Positions 5,360 to 64,000 of a stretch of 64,000 nt of DNA are shown piece after piece (within the stretch, counting starts at the first letter, position 1; every line of letters begins with the position of its first letter). The stretch is from the NCBI GenBank assembly GCA_029262455.1, contig JAJCZJ010000088.1, positions 270,273-334,272 on the forward strand, given 5' to 3'. Under the pieces are notes generated by a model that saw nothing but the letters and a program-made list of their open reading frames with translations, did not search any database and had not been told where the DNA came from. This DNA comes from Deltaproteobacteria bacterium. GTDB lineage: Bacteria > Desulfobacterota > Binatia > HRBIN30 > CADEER01. A program made the translations under genes and the position numbers.

Positions 5360-6910
5360 TCAGACCGGCTGGAGGACGATTGCGTTGGTCGGCGAGATCT
5401 CGCCCCGAAACACCTGTCCCTCATCCGGCAGCTTCGTACTCACTGCGACCTGATAGTCGCCGTCTAAGTCGATCGTTCGCTGCTCATCGGCAAACGAGAT
5501 GATCACGACTCGCTCGTCGGAATCGGTCCCGCGACGCCAAGCGAGTAGGTGCTCATCGGTCGGCAGCCATTCGAAGGAACCGCTCCACAACGCCGGCGAC
5601 TGACGACGGTGCACAAGCAAGCGTCGATAAAAGTGCAGGACGGAGTCGGGATCGCTGCGCTGCGCCTGCCAGCTTCGTTCAGCCGGTTTGGGGGAAAAGG
5701 GGAGCCAGGGCTCCTTCTGCCAGCCGTGTGGCGATTCGACTTCCCAGGGGATCGGTGCGCGACAGCCGTCGCGCCCACCGGGGTCGACGCGGGCCTCCTC
5801 GGGAACGTCGGCATCCTCGAGGCCGAGCTCTTCTCCCATGTACATAAACGGTGTACCGCGCAGCCCGAGTAGAAGAACCGCCGCGGCGCGGGCGCGGTCT
5901 TCTCCGCCGCCGAAGCGAGTACGTTGCCGACTGAAATCGTGGTTGGAGACTACCCAAGTCGGCCATGCTCGATGGCGCTCGAGTACGCCGTAGGTCGTAT
6001 CGATGCAGTTTCGCCAAGCAGCGGCGTCCCACGGTAGAAAGATCGCTGGAAAGTTGAACGCCAAGTGAAGTTCGTCACCGCGCCCGTGGTAGGTCGCCAT
6101 GCGCTCGACGTCCAAGAGAAAGACCTCGCCGACCATCATTCGCTGATCGGCGTACGATCCGAGCAGTTCGCGAATGTCGCGCAGGAAATCGTGCGTGACG
6201 TCTGCATCGTTGAGCGCGCAGTGAGGGATCTTTTCCAGCTTCGCTGGAACCGAGGCCAGAGCCGCATCTTTCCCGATGTTGTGCACGACGTCAGCGCGGA
6301 ATCCGTCGACACCGCGATCGAGCCAGAAGCGCAGGGTGTCGTGCATCGCCGCGCGGAGATCGGGGTTCGCCCAATTCAAGTCGGGCTGCTCGGACAGGAA
6401 CGAGTGCAGGTAGAACTGGCCCGTGTGCTGATCGAGAGTCCAAGCCGGCCCGCCATCTGAGAAAGCCGATGCCCAATTGTTCGGCACCTCTCCGTTCGGA
6501 CCCGGATCGCGCCACACATACCAGTCGCGTCGCGCGCTATCGCGCGAAGAGCGCGCATCGAGAAACCAAGCGTGGTCACTCGAGGTGTGGGCCGGCACCC
6601 AATCGATGATGACTCGCAGCCCGAGCGCGTGGGCGTTCTCGATCAACCGGTCGAAGTCCGCGAGCGTCCCGAACAACGGATCAACCTCGCAGTAGTCCGA
6701 GACGTCATACCCGAAGTCGCGCATCGGTGATTTGAAGAACGGCGATATCCAGAGCGCATCGACGCCGAGCCAAACCAGATCATCGAGGTGCGCGGTGATC
6801 CCGCGCAAATCGCCGACCCCGCTGCCCGACGAATCCGAAAAAGAGCGCGGGTAGATCTGGTAGAAAACCGCCTCCTCCCACCACGCAACCGAGCTCACCG
6901 CTTCCGCCAT
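5360..6910 (-). CDS. GH13 alpha-glucosidase (oligo-1,6-glucosidase / trehalose-6-phosphate-hydrolase-like)
   Basis: WWEEAVFYQIYPRSF, GDLRGITAHLDDLVWLGVDALWISPFFKSPMRDFGYDVSDY and GLRVIIDWVPAHTS are GH13 signature blocks. The ATG at 6910 is preferred over the TTG at 6958. Confidence 0.85.
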   Translation of the reverse strand: MAEAVSSVAWWEEAVFYQIYPRSFSDSSGSGVGDLRGITAHLDDLVWLGVDALWISPFFKSPMRDFGYDVSDYCEVDPLFGTLADFDRLIENAHALGLRVIIDWVPAHTSSDHAWFLDARSSRDSARRDWYVWRDPGPNGEVPNNWASAFSDGGPAWTLDQHTGQFYLHSFLSEQPDLNWANPDLRAAMHDTLRFWLDRGVDGFRADVVHNIGKDAALASVPAKLEKIPHCALNDADVTHDFLRDIRELLGSYADQRMMVGEVFLLDVERMATYHGRGDELHLAFNFPAIFLPWDAAAWRNCIDTTYGVLERHRAWPTWVVSNHDFSRQRTRFGGGEDRARAAAVLLLGLRGTPFMYMGEELGLEDADVPEEARVDPGGRDGCRAPIPWEVESPHGWQKEPWLPFSPKPAERSWQAQRSDPDSVLHFYRRLLVHRRQSPALWSGSFEWLPTDEHLLAWRRGTDSDERVVIISFADEQRTIDLDGDYQVAVSTKLPDEGQVFRGEISPTNAIVLQPV

Positions 6911-59098: not shown

Positions 59099-60331
59099 GT
59101 GAGAGTCCTACTTTCCGTCGCAATACTCCTCGCTTGCGCACCAGCTGTGTCAGCACGCATGTTGTTCGTAGCCGGCCAACCCGTACCGGTATCGTCGCGG
59201 CCACGATACCTCGCGACCGACGATATCGATCAGGACGGCCTTGCCGACGCCATTGTCGTCAGCACGCGCGACACTCTCTCGATCCTCTACGGCTCCGAGA
59301 CCTCGCAGACGCTCTTCAGCGCGCCGCAGGTCGTCACCTTCGGCCGCCGTTTGCGCAGACCCAACACCGGTGACGTCAACGCCGACGGAATTACCGACAT
59401 CGTCGTGCCCGACGAAAGCAGCGGGGCCGTGTGGGTCCTGCTCGGCGAGGGAACTCGCGGCTTCGCCGCACCGCGGCTTATTCCTGTGGGAAGCAAGATG
59501 AGGCCATACGCAGTCGCGATCGGAGACATCGATGGCATCGGCGGCAACGATATCGTCGTCGGCGAACGGCGCAGCGGGCAAATCCACGTGCGACTCAACA
59601 CCGCCGCTTTCTCCTTTCGCAACGGGCCGGTCATGAACACCCGGGGCGGACTCGAACAGATCGAATGTGAGGATCTAAACGGCGACGGTCTGCCTGAACT
59701 GATCAGCGTCTCAGCCGGGCGCGTCGGACGCGTTTCAGTATTCCCCGCCACGGCACAGGCCAATGGTTCCCTCACCTACGGCGACCCGATGTCATTCAAC
59801 ACCGATTCGACCAAAGCGAGCTTCGCCACCGGCGACTTCGACAACAATGGTACGCGCGATCTAGCCGTCCTTTCCAGAACCCGCGGCGGCAAGAACAGCA
59901 TCCTCGGCATCAGATCGACGAACCCGGATCACAGTGTCGGCGCGTCTTTGTCCCTCGAAGCACCCTGTCCCGATCAGGGCCGCCGCCGCTTCTGCAGAGC
60001 CCGAGGCATCGCGGCGGCCGACTTCGATAGAGACGGCATCATCGACCTGGCGATCGGCCTGCGCAATCGCGCCGTCCTCGGAGCCTTGGGAACGAGACGT
60101 TCCGGCGTCGTCGCAATCATGCGCGGCCGCGGCGACACCTTCGTCGCCGCCGACAGCGCCCCGTGGCTGGAAAAAGCACCCGCCGAGATCGACTCAGGCG
60201 ATTTCGACGGCGACGGCCGCCCCGACATCGTCGCCATCAGCAAGTCGAGCAGCCTCCTACAAGCAATGCGAAACATCTCCTCACCCGGCCCAACCGTGCG
60301 CAGAAAGCGCCGCGTCGAGCCTCGCAGGTAA
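59099..60331 (+). CDS. Secreted FG-GAP/VCBS-repeat beta-propeller protein
   Basis: A GTG start gives the signal peptide MRVLLSVAILLACAPAVSA. Repeated DxDxDGxxD Ca-binding loops (TDDIDQDGLADAIVV, GDVNADGITDIVV, EDLNGDGLPELISV, GDFDGDGRPDIVAI). Confidence 0.6.
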   Translation: MRVLLSVAILLACAPAVSARMLFVAGQPVPVSSRPRYLATDDIDQDGLADAIVVSTRDTLSILYGSETSQTLFSAPQVVTFGRRLRRPNTGDVNADGITDIVVPDESSGAVWVLLGEGTRGFAAPRLIPVGSKMRPYAVAIGDIDGIGGNDIVVGERRSGQIHVRLNTAAFSFRNGPVMNTRGGLEQIECEDLNGDGLPELISVSAGRVGRVSVFPATAQANGSLTYGDPMSFNTDSTKASFATGDFDNNGTRDLAVLSRTRGGKNSILGIRSTNPDHSVGASLSLEAPCPDQGRRRFCRARGIAAADFDRDGIIDLAIGLRNRAVLGALGTRRSGVVAIMRGRGDTFVAADSAPWLEKAPAEIDSGDFDGDGRPDIVAISKSSSLLQAMRNISSPGPTVRRKRRVEPRR

Positions 60332-60364
60332 GATCCTATTATCGCGAGCTTTGAGGATGGCGAG

Positions 60365-60652
60365 TTACAGCTTCGGCGATCGCTGGGCACTGTGCCAGAC
60401 GCGGACGATCTCAAGCGGGTCGGAGTCCGGCAAAAAGATTATTTGGTACGAGTAAACCGGGTGAAACCGGTACTTCGGATCAATCTTCGGCCGCGTGTAG
60501 CCAATACGGGGTTTTGCGGCCAAGAGACGAAATGCGTCGTGGAACTCTTGCTCGACACGGAGCGCCGAATCGAGGTTGTCCTCGGCGATGTACGCGAAGA
60601 TCTCAGCGACATCGACCTCAGCTCGCGGGGCGAGCCGATAGGTCTTGCTCAT
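60365..60652 (-). CDS. parE: ParE/RelE-family type II toxin
   Basis: 95 aa. YQIIFLPDSDPLEIVRVWHSAQ is the typical ParE C-terminus. ATGA overlap with the upstream antitoxin gene. Confidence 0.8.
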   Translation of the reverse strand: MSKTYRLAPRAEVDVAEIFAYIAEDNLDSALRVEQEFHDAFRLLAAKPRIGYTRPKIDPKYRFHPVYSYQIIFLPDSDPLEIVRVWHSAQRSPKL

Positions 60653-60894
60653 TGCCGCTGACGGAAAGACTCCGCTAGCTCCGCCATGTGCTGGCGAAAC
60701 TGCTCTTCGGTGACGTACTCGCCCCGGTCGAGCTCGGCCTGACCTTCAGCGATCGCTTCGCGAATCGCATCGGTTTCGGCCTCTTGCTGCTCCCGTTGGT
60801 CGAGCAACTCGGTGAGGTATTCTTCGGCCGACGCGTAGCGGCCAGCCTTGACTGGCGCGGCAAGTCGGTCCTCGAGTTTCTTGTCCAGCTTCAT
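60649..60894 (-). CDS. parD: ParD-family type II antitoxin
   Basis: MKLDKKLEDRLAAPVKAGRYASAEEYLTELLDQRE...AIAEGQAELDRGEYVT is the ParD (PF03693-like) pattern. Confidence 0.7.
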   Translation of the reverse strand: MKLDKKLEDRLAAPVKAGRYASAEEYLTELLDQREQQEAETDAIREAIAEGQAELDRGEYVTEEQFRQHMAELAESFRQRQ

Positions 60895-61001
60895 GCCGGT
60901 AGAGTCTACAACAGGTTCGGAAACGTGAAAAGCGTCGTATCCCAATTGAGTTCAACAGGGGAGGCCCTTGATCACACAAGCCCGGGCTGGGAAAAGCTTC
61001 C

Positions 61002-61139
61002 GGCGATTTCGACGGCGACGGCCGCCCCGACATCGTCGCCATCAGCAAATCGAGGAACCTCTTACAGCAATGCGAAACATCTCCTCACCAGGGCTCACGG
61101 TGCGCAGAAAGCGCCGCGTCGAGTCGCGACGGTAAGATC
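61002..61139 (+). pseudogene. Duplicated, frameshifted copy of the last 138 bp of the FG-GAP gene (copy B; ~90% identical to 60197-60334)
   Basis: Direct alignment: GGCGATTTCGACGGCGACGGCCGCCCCGACATCGTCGCCATCAGCAA...GCGCCGCGTCGAG...GGTAAGATC. Copy B has a 1-nt deletion that breaks the frame. Confidence 0.6.
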
Positions 61140-61194
61140 TCTATCGCAATCTGCGCCCTTGCCTCACTCAGCGGACCTGGTGCGGAAAAAGAGT

Positions 61195-61343
61195 CAACAC
61201 GAAGACACAAGGACACGAAGACACGAAGATTGCGCGACTTGTCATGGCCGCACGGACCCTTTTCGAAACGGAGTCCATGGAGTGGCTAGCTCCTGGTCCG
61301 AAAAACCCTAACAACCCCTTTGTGTCTTCGTGTCTTTGTGTTG
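61195..61343. repeat. AT-richer inverted-repeat element: arms built from GAAGACAC/AAGGACAC octamers (61195-61228 versus 61314-61343) enclose an ~85-nt structured spacer. A T-run follows on the minus strand
   Basis: Seen directly in the sequence. It could be a MITE-like element, a structured sRNA or a minus-strand terminator. Confidence 0.4.
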
Positions 61344-61458
61344 AAAATAACGAACCACCGGTTCATCTGAGATGCCACTGAGACTGTGCTCTGACGGTGC
61401 GGGACGACGCAATCCCGTTACCTAGAGGCTCGGCCGTAGGCAATCAAATCACCGCGCC

Positions 61459-61527
61459 GCGAAACATTTCGTCTCCCGTCCCAACGGTATGCAGAATGCG
61501 CCGCGTCGAGCTTCGTGGGTAAGATCC
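61459..61527 (+). repeat. Third, more degenerate copy (copy C) of the FG-GAP gene 3'-end repeat
   Basis: GCGAAACAT...GCGCCGCGTCGAGCTTCGTGGGTAAGATCC aligns with 60266-60336 at ~80% identity. It shares the 3' flank ATCTGCGCCC with copy B. Confidence 0.45.
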
Positions 61528-61986
61528 CCGATCTGCGCCCGCTGCCCCAATTGTTGAGGTTCCTGCTACGGCCGAGCAGGGTTAGAGAGTCACTAGCCCA
61601 GGGTTCGAACCAGGGCCGACCCAGGGCTTCCGATGGTTGAGACGAACAGCAATGTGAAGTGGCTGTGCGCGATTCGATGAATCAACCAGTCTCAACCCGG
61701 CCCTGCGCAATGCGTCCGCAGATCGATCGATGCTCCCTCGGATAAACCTGGGCCCTTCGACTACAGCCCATGTCGGAGCAAGTCGGCATCGCGGGTCCCT
61801 GTCCCGGCAAAAGCAGAGGAGTAGTTTCCTCGGCAAAAACGAGATCTGCCCCTTAGCGGCGTAGAGTCTCCTCAGCAGCCTCCCGTAGGTTTCCCCCGAG
61901 CTGGCCTGGGACACACGACTTGGCAACACGCAATGTCAGCGGCATAACGGTAGCCGAGAAGAACGTCCCCGACGAAAGGCCAATGT

Positions 61987-63990
61987 ATGGCAAAAAGCAA
62001 AGCCTATCAGCGAGCGAAACAGAAAATCGAAGAGGCACGAGGCTCAGCGGCCTGGCGACTCGATCTCGCAGGGTTGGGTCTCACAGCTCTCCCTGACTCC
62101 CTGGCTCAGCTCACCAACTTGCAGAGCCTCTATCTCAGCTCCAACCAACTCACCGCTCTCCCTGACTCCCTGGCTCAGCTCACCAACTTGCAGAGCCTCT
62201 ATCTCAGATCCAACCAACTCACCGCTCTCCCTGACTCCCTGGCTCAGCTCACCAACTTGCAGATCCTCGATCTCAGATCCAACCAACTCACCGCTCTCCC
62301 TGACTCCCTCGCTCAGCTCACCAACTTGCGGATCCTCTTCCTCAGTTCCAACCAACTCACCGAGTTACCGGCGTCGCTGCGGCACTTGGCCGACAACGCC
62401 GTATTGCGCGAGCTCTACCTTCACGATAACCCGGCCCTCGAACTGCCCAGCGAGTTGCTGGGGCCAGAGCACGCACGGGACACTTACAATCCACCGAAGC
62501 CGCCAAAGGAGATCCTGGATTACTACTTCTCAACCCGCGGTGACGCCGGGCAGGCGCTGCGGGAACTTCGGCTGATCGTCGTCGGCCGCCCCAAGGTTGG
62601 GAAGACGACTCTGATCAAGCGACTGCGCGGCCATCCGATGGACCCGCACGAGGCCGAGACCCACGGCATCGACATTCTACCGATGGATCTGAAGTGTCCG
62701 GACGGCCCCCTCCGAGCGCGGGTCTGGGACTTCGGTGGACAGCACGTGTTGCATGCCATGCACGAGTTCTTTCTGCGCAACCGCTGCCTCTACCTGTTGG
62801 TGGTCGAACAACGCGCCAACGACGTCGAACGGGAGCTGACGTACTGGCTCCAACTGATCCGCAGCTACGCTGGCGATGCGCCGGTGGTCGTCGCGCTGAA
62901 CCAGAGCAAGGGTATCCCACGCTCCTTGGCGAGAGCAGCGCTGGAGCGAGACTACGGGCCGATTCTCGCCTGGGTTCCCACCGAGTGCGCGTCGGAAGAC
63001 GAAGTCCCCGGTGCCGACGCCACCATCGAGGCGCTGCGCGCTGCACTCACCACAACCGCAGCCGCGATGCCCGAGCCGAAGAAGCTTTTTCCGAAGAAGT
63101 GGTTGGCGATCAAGCAATGGCTAGAAGCCATGCAAGAGCCATACCTGGACTACGCCACCTACGCCGAGCATTGCGCAGAGTTGAACGAGCGCGATCCGCA
63201 GCAGCAAGCCGCCCTCGCAGCCGCCATGGATGAACTCGGCGTGGCACTCAACTACGCCCGCGATCCCCGCCTGCGCGACACCACCGTGTTGCGGCCGAAC
63301 TGGCTGGCCAACGGCATCTACGCGTTGCTGCGCGCCAACATTCTGGCGCCCGAACCGCTGGCGCCTGAGGGCGTGCTGACAGAGTCAATGGTCGGGACAG
63401 TCCTGAAGGTTGCGGGCCAGGCGAAGGTACTCGATGCGGCCGAGTACCCGCCCGAGAAGTGGTCGTTCTTGCTGCGGCTGATGAACCTCTTCCAGCTGAG
63501 CTTTCCACTCGACGAAGAGGGCGAGCGCTATCTAGTGCCGGCCTTGCTACCCGCCGATGAGCCGGTGGACAGCGGCGAACCGGGCGGCCCGAACCAAGTG
63601 AAGCTGCGCTACGAATTCGACGTCGTCCCAGGCCCGCTGATCGGGCGCTTGCTCGTACGCCTGTTCGCGATCATCGACGGCCGCAAGGTTTGGCACCGCG
63701 GTGCGCGGCTGCGCTACGGCGATGCAAAAGCGCGCGCGTGGGCCGATCTGGAAGAGAAGTACGTCTTCGTCAGCGTTGCCGGCGACGCGAACGATGCCGC
63801 GGAGCTGCTCGAGATGATTCGCGAAACGCTCAAAGAGTTGTTCCGTGAATACGAACGACTGCGCGTCGTCGAGCAGTGGTGGCACGGCGACAACTGGGTG
63901 CCGCGCGGCACCCTGGAGCAGATCGGCGTGCTAGCCCGCGAAGTGGTCAGCGAAGGCAAGCAACCGGGCGGACAGGAGGTGCGCGATTAA
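61987..63990 (+). CDS. ROCO-family GTPase: LRR - Roc (Ras-of-complex G domain) - COR
   Basis: At least five LRRs (LTALPDSLAQLTNLQSLYLSSNQ). The P-loop RLIVVGRPKVGKTTLIKRL and switch II WDFGGQ. A long COR-like C-terminal region. Complete ORF ending in TAA at 63990. Confidence 0.85.
   Translation: MAKSKAYQRAKQKIEEARGSAAWRLDLAGLGLTALPDSLAQLTNLQSLYLSSNQLTALPDSLAQLTNLQSLYLRSNQLTALPDSLAQLTNLQILDLRSNQLTALPDSLAQLTNLRILFLSSNQLTELPASLRHLADNAVLRELYLHDNPALELPSELLGPEHARDTYNPPKPPKEILDYYFSTRGDAGQALRELRLIVVGRPKVGKTTLIKRLRGHPMDPHEAETHGIDILPMDLKCPDGPLRARVWDFGGQHVLHAMHEFFLRNRCLYLLVVEQRANDVERELTYWLQLIRSYAGDAPVVVALNQSKGIPRSLARAALERDYGPILAWVPTECASEDEVPGADATIEALRAALTTTAAAMPEPKKLFPKKWLAIKQWLEAMQEPYLDYATYAEHCAELNERDPQQQAALAAAMDELGVALNYARDPRLRDTTVLRPNWLANGIYALLRANILAPEPLAPEGVLTESMVGTVLKVAGQAKVLDAAEYPPEKWSFLLRLMNLFQLSFPLDEEGERYLVPALLPADEPVDSGEPGGPNQVKLRYEFDVVPGPLIGRLLVRLFAIIDGRKVWHRGARLRYGDAKARAWADLEEKYVFVSVAGDANDAAELLEMIRETLKELFREYERLRVVEQWWHGDNWVPRGTLEQIGVLAREVVSEGKQPGGQEVRD
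62080..62355 (+). repeat. Four near-identical 69-bp tandem DNA repeats encoding the LRR units of the ROCO gene
   Basis: Seen directly in the sequence: CTCACCGCTCTCCCTGACTCCCTGGCTCAGCTCACCAACTTGCAGAGCCTCTATCTCAG(C/A)TCCAACCAA is repeated with 1-3 substitutions per unit. Confidence 0.8.
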
Positions 63991-64000
63991 ACCTCGGAAC

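Follow-up and report, generated by a model that had tools for sequence, protein, structure and literature searches.

A tandem array of near-identical leucine-rich repeats in a bacterial ROCO gene, probably the sensor half of a ROCO-TIR cassette

Near the end of a 64-kb stretch of a deltaproteobacterial contig (JAJCZJ010000088.1; the whole analysed stretch of 64,000 nucleotides is called the window below) lies a gene of the ROCO family in which four almost identical 69-bp units follow one another in tandem, each encoding one leucine-rich repeat (LRR). We read this array as the central LRR part of an LRR-Roc-COR GTPase that probably supplies the sensing and switching component of a two-gene ROCO-TIR cassette, its repeat units being gained, lost and homogenised by homology-driven processes while diversifying selection acts on them. 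Bacterial Roco proteins are used as structural stand-ins for human LRRK2; the link to a TIR gene, the changes in unit number and the substitutions at the binding face together give a concrete hypothesis of a sensor, a GTP switch and a TIR effector.

The array and its gene

Tandem Repeats Finder reports the array with a period of 69, 4.1 copies, 95% matches, 0% indels and a score of 496, and a second repeat search recovers 138-nt copies at 69-nt spacing with identities of 97% and 93%. With up to two mismatches allowed, four occurrences of the unit's 45-nt core are found, and 100 shuffles of the sequence in this search give an expectation of none, which rules out a chance origin. At the same threshold, the core has no further copy elsewhere in the window; a second copy that might have acted as a conversion donor was thus rejected for the window. 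The units start at 62080, 62149, 62218 and 62287 and differ from their consensus at 2, 0, 2 and 6 nucleotides, with 2-7 differences in pairwise comparison and adjacent units most alike. A preliminary description of this DNA, made from the letters alone, had noted four consecutive near-identical LRR-coding units, and the observation is confirmed, coordinates included. Its figure of one to three differences per unit holds for three units but is too low for the fourth. The array lies in frame in the ROCO open reading frame (ORF), with one 23-residue LRR per unit; it begins within the first LRR and ends in the fifth of six, 7 nt (62356-62362) into a fifth period. The LRRs flanking it are just 30-40% identical to the unit.

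The same description had called the gene a ROCO gene, and the Pfam matches leave this identification standing, all of them over threshold: Roc (77.4 bits against a cut-off of 27, E = 1.3e-21), COR-A (95.1 against 35.3, E = 4.6e-27), COR-B (50.3 against 27, E = 2.8e-13) and LRR_8 (E = 1.3e-24). Roc, COR-A and COR-B stand in this order, so that Roc is directly followed by COR as in the Roco family. The Roco structures 6hlu, 8r4b, 3dpu and 4wnr in the PDB all match; 6HLU and 8R4B are the best full-length solved relatives, and the match to 6hlu, from Chlorobium tepidum Roco, covers residues 39-629 (E = 6.4e-54). From its N-terminus the protein has a short cap helix, then the six LRRs and, after a conserved linker (KPPKEILDYYFSTRG), Roc, COR-A and COR-B. 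Its GRPKVGKT and DFGGQ motifs are invariant across 36 homologues and the GTP-binding motifs appear intact, while the G4 motif NKxD has become NQSK. No signal peptide or membrane segment is recognisable in the sequence, and the protein appears to be cytoplasmic.

An AlphaFold2 model built with the 36 homologues has predicted local distance difference test scores of 90-97 over residues 11-150, the LRR part. In this model, β-strands lie at residues 24-26, 47-49, 70-72, 93-95, 116-118 and 142-144, and according to DSSP they are spaced by 23 residues through the first five LRRs and by 26 to the sixth, each strand occupying LRR positions 3-5 in the LxxLxLxxN register. The LRR_8 match and the predicted model thus show the periodic motif, the solenoid and the single strand per unit of an LRR domain.

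Age of the units and position of their differences

Between neighbouring units, 3 of 54.5 synonymous sites are different, a proportion (pS) of 0.055, whereas the Roc-COR part compared with the five closest homologous genes gives pS values of 0.56-0.82, at or near saturation. Unit identities tell the same story: the window units are 96-99% identical to one another but at most 74% to any unit of any other gene, and LRR units within homologous genes typically share 45-75% nucleotide identity. The terminal cap LRR, for its part, shares 45% identity with its neighbours in the same gene and 72% with the corresponding LRR of another gene. Because pS is so low within the gene and so high between genes, and because the unit identities show this contrast, the internal units are young; they were copied or homogenised long after the split from the nearest known relatives. 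The preliminary description had held that the units are more alike than protein function requires, and the contrast in pS bears it out.

Young, uniform units might also be a product of pure concerted evolution, in which intragenic gene conversion keeps the internal LRRs alike for structure while copy number at this locus is stable and the variation has no adaptive meaning. The central units are indeed most alike and the edge units most diverged, as this explanation would have it. The positions of the differences across the family speak against it. In the window, six of the eight variable nucleotides fall in codons for LRR positions 2, 3, 5 and 7 (binomial P = 0.002), and all four variable residues occupy these positions (Q/R, S/I, Y/D/F and S/R; hypergeometric P = 5.6e-4), which sit in and beside the predicted β-strand. 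In LRR proteins generally, the side chains at these positions form the lining of the concave side, where ligands bind. Just two differences in the array, ACA/ACC and CTG/CTC, are straightforwardly silent. Taken alone, the window units have a ratio of nonsynonymous to synonymous proportions (pN/pS) of about 0.8, and no dN/dS above 1 is claimed from this gene by itself, which offers just 10 substitutions.

The same positional pattern is found across the family. Near-identical units within a single gene recur independently, with gene-specific signature residues, for example in L037 (at 99%), in L035 (19 unit pairs at 90% or more) and also in L016, L057, L056 and L032 (L-numbers denote homologous DNA loci and P-numbers homologous proteins). 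When near-identical units were compared in 59 pooled pairs, drawn from 43 non-redundant homologous genes, positions 2, 3, 5, 7 and 8 held 132 of the 231 nonsynonymous differences but 9 of the 123 synonymous ones (odds ratio 16.9, P = 3e-22). Since nonsynonymous differences concentrate at these positions, the family pattern points to a homogenised scaffold combined with diversifying selection on the binding face, and the four units of the window fit it. Neutral conversion predicts neither the pile-up of nonsynonymous differences on five surface positions nor the avoidance of them by synonymous ones. The substitution pattern between units, like the conserved TIR partner gene described below, had been left out of the preliminary description.

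Gain and loss of whole units in related genes

At E ≤ 1e-20, more than 2000 homologues of the window protein are found, the best of them 76-78% identical to it. In nearly all of the 34 closest proteins, the length after the P-loop is 467-471 residues, and the N-terminal LRR part runs from 110 residues (truncated records) or 166 (apparently complete) up to 586, with a varying number of 23-residue LRRs. The window protein stands at the short end of the family and its array is among the shortest. With near-copies making up four of the six LRRs, so short an array is more readily explained by repeated contraction and re-expansion than by growth alone.

Length was compared in 18 clusters at 90% identity with at least two full-length members each. 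In six of them (P0074/P0146, P0112/P0164, P0001/P0165, P0049/P0121/P0133, P0167/P0168 and P0035/P0294), the alleles are 99.3-100% identical once their internal indels are set aside, which measure exactly 23, 46 or 69 residues. The clusters contain no other internal indels and one divergent C-terminal tail (P0030). The remaining 12 have no length change, some of them at 94-98% identity; the change of unit number is therefore not a universal fast switch. This stability is what concerted evolution would lead one to expect. Its difficulty is with the whole-unit indels between alleles that have zero or few point differences, which show that in several relatives length evolves no more slowly than sequence, and together with the positional evidence they make it a distinctly unlikely account of the array.

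Three comparisons of DNA illustrate how such alleles differ. L071, the closest homologue of the window gene, and L072, from another data set, have no mismatch in 2433 nt and are separated by one perfectly duplicated 69-nt unit, which may have arisen very recently or reflect a collapsed assembly. L075 and L076 have no mismatch in 2556 nt and differ by one 69-nt unit that is 6-7 sites away from each neighbour, the longest exact tract being 52 nt; this pair is the closest analogue of the window array. Finally, the short allele found in two samples (L073 and L074) differs from L039 by 7 mismatches in 2160 nt and by one 69-nt unit. Because this extra unit is quite unlike its neighbours and the junction shows no more than short microhomology, the difference is not explicable by collapse of identical repeats. 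Gain and loss of whole LRRs are thus real in the family; several lineages show them no less often than point substitutions over the length of the gene. In addition, the LRR + AP-GTPase + COR proteins listed for strains of Crocosphaera watsonii, a cultured organism, measure 674, 674, 715 and 761 residues (PMC8195603, supplementary file 20), which may be a further case of strain-level variation in LRR length.

Two inferences of the preliminary description bear on these indels. It had attributed the array to recent slipped-strand or recombinational events, and the exact 69-, 138- or 207-bp indels between near-identical alleles of related genes support it. It had also proposed a contingency locus with variable LRR number. 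The variable number is borne out in relatives, where it changes in a third of the clusters and where pairs of loci without point differences are separated by a unit; in its strict sense, the term is overstated for in-frame changes of four 69-bp units in a protein that appears cytoplasmic. Classic contingency loci, such as those of simple-sequence phase variation in Neisseria and Haemophilus, have units of 1-8 bp, turn expression on and off at 1e-2 to 1e-5 and encode surface or secreted products. Repetitive DNA raises the local mutation rate in such loci, as it may in the window array. Moreover, tandem near-identical repeats with exact tracts of 40-55 nt, and allele pairs of relatives that differ by one unit alone (L071/L072 and L075/L076), would suit a true contingency locus, that is, programmed, high-frequency and reversible change of LRR number with phenotypic switching within clones. 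However, the units are long and few, in-frame changes would switch nothing on or off, the product has no recognisable export or membrane signal, and two thirds of the near-identical clusters are length-stable, so that we give this explanation hardly any credence. The change of LRR number looks like structural diversification of a sensor among alleles rather than phase variation. Whole repeat units are also gained and lost in frame in the LRR-number isoforms of YopM and in streptococcal Alp repeats.

A further claim of that description, that the array is a likely assembly-collapse site, is reasonable as a caution about the family. Of 52 related metagenome contigs, 16 or more have their first base within the LRR array (L025, L030, L033, L037, L040-L042, L044, L045, L047, L048, L055, L061, L062, L064 and L065). 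In this biased sample, the count suggests that the arrays are frequent assembly breakpoints. The L071/L072 pair, moreover, is separated by a perfect duplicate. The window array itself could accordingly be an artefact, either collapsed from a larger number of real copies or mis-joined. This is very unlikely, since every unit is distinguishable and the longest exact tract, 55 nt, is shorter than common read lengths and k-mers. In addition, the reading frame is kept across the array, and the contig from which it comes appears to measure 623,648 bp. Nor would an assembler produce the positional rule of 43 other genes, which the unit differences obey. Nevertheless, the array marks a fragile spot for annotation and short-read assembly because contigs break there, and allele-length differences in the family need verification before they are believed.

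The TIR partner gene

The ROCO protein has no effector domain of its own, but in its relatives a candidate effector is encoded next door. Among non-redundant loci whose sequence extends 300 nt or more past COR-B, 53 of 53 have a TIR gene directly downstream, and the gene tables of five loci show it beside the ROCO gene. In L071, a TIR_2 gene of 167 codons begins 11 nt before the ROCO stop codon, and the arrangement in L072-L076 is alike. Pfam TIR_2 is over threshold in four divergent examples, and the best PADLOC match of the downstream TIR is of the ThsB type (ThsB1, E = 1e-11 to 3e-12). The Glu of an S-x-Y-I-x-x-V-E motif is kept in at least 90% of 46 TIR sequences and presumably corresponds to the catalytic Glu of TIRs that cleave nicotinamide adenine dinucleotide (NAD). 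Moreover, ROCO and TIR are fused in some homologues, with the TIR N-terminal in P0026 and, by precomputed Pfam annotation, in P0113, and C-terminal in L042 (L042:3-2201). These fusions are Rosetta-stone evidence for a functional link.

In the window, the sequence ends 10 nt past the ROCO stop codon, within what would be the first five codons of the TIR gene. The last 15 nt (63986-64000) align with the TIR start of L071, ATG AAA GCT AAG AAC, and the AGGAGG before them with its ribosome-binding site. The homologous start codon reads ATT here and shares one base with the ROCO TAA stop, which may point to a non-canonical or coupled start of translation, or else to damage in the partner gene. A 155-residue TIR_2 protein, P0378, is 74% identical to the TIR of L071 and apparently comes from the window's contig, to which it is tied by length only: its NCBI contig measures 623,648 bp, as does the one carrying a GlnE 100% identical to that of the window. 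Its N-terminus lies about 20 residues inside those of its homologues, so that the first β-strand (FISYAH) would be missing; such a late start is what a gene caller would choose where a canonical start is missing. Taken together, the alignment and P0378 make it very likely that the TIR gene adjoins the ROCO gene in the source genome.

The surroundings of other cassettes add two observations. L073 is flanked on both sides by PIN/PhdYeFM toxin-antitoxin pairs (L073:1979-2643 and 5856-6493), and a gene with a Gasdermin_protease domain (L076:4461-5943) lies 1.5 kb downstream of the cassette in L076. Homologues at 48-70% identity occur in metagenome-assembled genomes labelled Planctomycetota, Pyrinomonadaceae, several Verrucomicrobiota, Piscirickettsiaceae and Ca. 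Nealsonbacteria; among larger groups, the spread covers Planctomycetota, Acidobacteriota, Verrucomicrobiota and Gammaproteobacteria. GlnE of the host, by comparison, matches nothing above 66% besides its own record. The patchy spread across phyla suggests horizontal transfer of the cassette.

A model of the cassette and its weaknesses

In the mechanism that we propose, exact tracts of 40-55 nt at 69-nt spacing would allow replication slippage or unequal exchange dependent on RecA, with gene conversion perhaps making the units more uniform as well. Together they would hold the scaffold codons near-identical and shift the unit number in whole in-frame steps of 69 bp, while selection would keep or favour residue differences at the exposed positions 2, 3, 5 and 7 (and 8) of the concave face. 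The LRR horseshoe would be the recognition surface, so that changes in its length or surface may retune what the protein recognises. The Roc-COR GTPase would then turn recognition into a conformational change; GTP makes the LRR domain of the C. tepidum Roco protein (CtRoco) undergo a large hinge motion (PMC11052575). The downstream TIR protein would be the output, presumably as an NAD-cleaving effector like those of the predicted prokaryotic counter-invader systems.

Several points weigh against this model. The 10 substitutions among the four units are too few for selection to be demonstrable from the window gene, and the argument leans on the family. With one genome, duplication is not separable from gene conversion. 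Exact protein look-up and homologue searches found no strain-level relative of the locus and none above 78% protein identity, so that variation in copy number is seen only in relatives. A 30-nt repeat probe had no match in metagenome contigs, and protein-guided scans of genome and metagenome contigs found nothing above about 76% overall identity. In addition, part of the length variation between alleles may stem from collapsed assemblies, for instance the perfect duplicate in L072. The TIR gene lies outside the window, and given the ATT start and the N-terminal residues that P0378 lacks, the partner may be impaired or unusually initiated. We found no experimental test of any bacterial ROCO-TIR pair in the literature.

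The genomic setting, too, looks like that of an ordinary chromosome: the neighbours in the window encode an M20 peptidase, an acyl-CoA synthetase, a 3-methyladenine glycosylase, an FG-GAP protein, GlnE and PBP1A. These housekeeping neighbours, which count against a conflict system and have their like in L071, would be at home around a housekeeping signalling GTPase unrelated to conflict, whose LRRs are a scaffold and whose repeat dynamics are a by-product of repetitive DNA. PADLOC, which has no model for the ROCO part, gives no match for the window ROCO protein, another point in favour of such a role, and bacterial Roco proteins have no known physiological role. Yet a housekeeping GTPase would hardly have the TIR link at every locus and fusions at either end. 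It also fits poorly with a patchy phylum distribution that GlnE does not share, with cassettes flanked by toxin-antitoxin pairs or near a gasdermin-protease gene, and with diversification aimed at surface positions. On balance we regard it as unlikely.

An immune role for the ROCO-TIR pair is one that we infer from gene linkage, fusions, evolutionary pattern and a published prediction. More broadly, the chances seem about even that ROCO-TIR is a widespread bacterial innate-immune module, in which a Roc-COR GTPase replaces the STAND ATPase of NLRs and the LRR sensor diversifies by unit gain and loss and by positive selection on the concave face, like plant TNLs and brown-algal ROCOs. If this is true, the physiological role of bacterial Roco proteins would be that of pathogen sensors, a role that would extend to the ancestral LRR-Roc-COR core of LRRK2, and the window array would be one snapshot of their diversification.

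Comparison with known systems

In plant NLR/LRR resistance genes, the residues of the xxLxLxx motif are hypervariable, and LRR number is altered by unequal crossing-over, as in flax L/M and Arabidopsis RPP5. Plant TIR-NB-LRR proteins and the proposed cassette share the nonsynonymous focus on exposed strand residues, whole-LRR indels between alleles and the combination of an LRR sensor, an NTP switch and a TIR domain. However, the switch here is a Ras-like Roc-COR GTPase instead of a STAND NB-ARC ATPase, and the TIR forms a polypeptide of its own. What the systems share is functional and does not imply that they are homologous as a whole.

Brown-algal LRR-ROC-COR proteins, which have the domain order of the window protein, gain, lose and shuffle single-LRR units under diversifying selection and are proposed immune receptors (PMC11378527). 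The algal genes have one exon per LRR and alternative splicing, whereas the units of the window are contiguous DNA repeats in a bacterial gene.

The closest published prediction is that of Kaur, Burroughs, Iyer and Aravind (2021; PMC8195603), in which LRR + AP-GTPase (Roc) + COR proteins are predicted counter-invader systems with 'rapidly evolving' LRRs and effectors that include TIR, and whose tables hold several hundred fused LRR + AP-GTPase + COR + TIR entries. The window protein has their LRR + Roc + COR core, but in its clade the TIR is encoded by a separate downstream gene, overlapping or closely abutting, rather than being a C-terminal domain. That study contains no unit-level analysis of LRR evolution. 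The window gene is therefore an instance of an already predicted class, to which the present analysis adds the split, translationally coupled TIR as the clade's invariant form, unit-level diversification directed at the surface, and indels at the level of alleles.

CtRoco (PDB 6HLU, 8R4B-D and 3DPU), the bacterial model of LRRK2, is like the window protein in its LRR-Roc-COR-A-COR-B order, P-loop and DxxGQ motif. The window protein is shorter (667 residues against chains of 974-1107), with six LRRs and no extra C-terminal region, and its clade always has a downstream TIR gene, whereas CtRoco has been studied as an enzyme. With Thoeris, the cassette shares a stand-alone TIR of about 160 residues, as in ThsB, with a conserved Glu in the expected motif. 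The invariant partner here is a ROCO protein, however, and the gene tables of the five homologous loci contain no ThsA-type gene. A classification as Thoeris was rejected for this reason.

Features and genomic surroundings

Table 1. Features of the ROCO gene, its repeat array and the junction with the putative partner gene (window coordinates).
Feature	Position	Strand	Basis
ROCO gene (667-residue LRR-Roc-COR-A-COR-B protein)	61987..63990	+	ORF, translation, Pfam, PDB match
N-terminal cap helix ahead of the LRRs	61999-62046	+	unit parsing, AlphaFold2 model
LRR domain, six LRRs of 23-26 residues (residues 24-158)	62056..62460	+	unit parsing, AlphaFold2 model
Tandem array, unit of 69 bp, 4.1 copies	62080..62362	+	Tandem Repeats Finder, repeat search, core-unit search
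Exact tract at offset 69, 53 nt	62086-62138	+	exact match
β-strand segment of unit 1, positions 2/3/5/7 = Q, S, Y, S	62122..62139	+	translation
Longest exact direct repeat, 55 nt	62140-62194 = 62209-62263	+	exact tract at offset 69
Equivalent segment of unit 2 = Q, S, Y, R	62191-62208	+	translation
Exact tract at offset 69, 40 nt	62201-62240	+	exact match
Equivalent segment of unit 3 = Q, I, D, R	62260-62277	+	translation
Equivalent segment of unit 4 = R, I, F, S	62329-62346	+	translation
Roc GTPase domain	62569..62904	+	Pfam, motifs
P-loop GRPKVGKT	62584-62607	+	motif
DFGGQ (switch II DxxGQ)	62728-62742	+	motif
COR-A	63091-63549	+	Pfam
COR-B	63592-63876	+	Pfam
Junction with partner gene: AGGAGG (63974-63979), 6 nt, ATT AAA CCT CGG AAC (63986-64000)	63974..64000	+	alignment to L071

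An antisense ORF of 103 codons (62044-62355, minus strand) spans the array and could be taken for a gene by a gene caller; as a real gene it was rejected, being a by-product of the repeat. The ROCO protein of the window is absent from a collection of 5.8 billion proteins, where the best match has 78% identity, and the gene may have been left uncalled or flagged as a pseudogene in the source annotation. GlnE (P0169, 100% identical) and the TIR protein P0378, apparently from the same contig, are present in that collection though the ROCO protein is not.

The region of about 1.65 kb on the 5′ side of the ROCO gene (60332-61986) contains no convincing gene. Its ORFs are of improbable composition, and none has a Pfam match over the curated cut-off, the best being DUF6349 at 20.1 bits against 25. 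Scans for upstream promoters and terminators gave results at chance level, and no Rfam elements were found in 60300-62100. The region has no synteny with the upstream regions of the homologous loci; the cassette therefore seems to be placed at different genomic sites in different lineages.

Within this region, about 640 nt upstream of the ROCO start, four copies of a tandem octamer (GACACGAAG-like, 61196-61229) face three copies of its reverse complement (61317-61349) at a distance of about 90 nt. The element, which has no Rfam match, lies at the end of a doubtful ORF (60688-61311) with a low-complexity translation. Together the two blocks form a long imperfect inverted repeat, the sole copy in the window, with a predicted RNA fold of -62 kcal/mol (z = -6.5).

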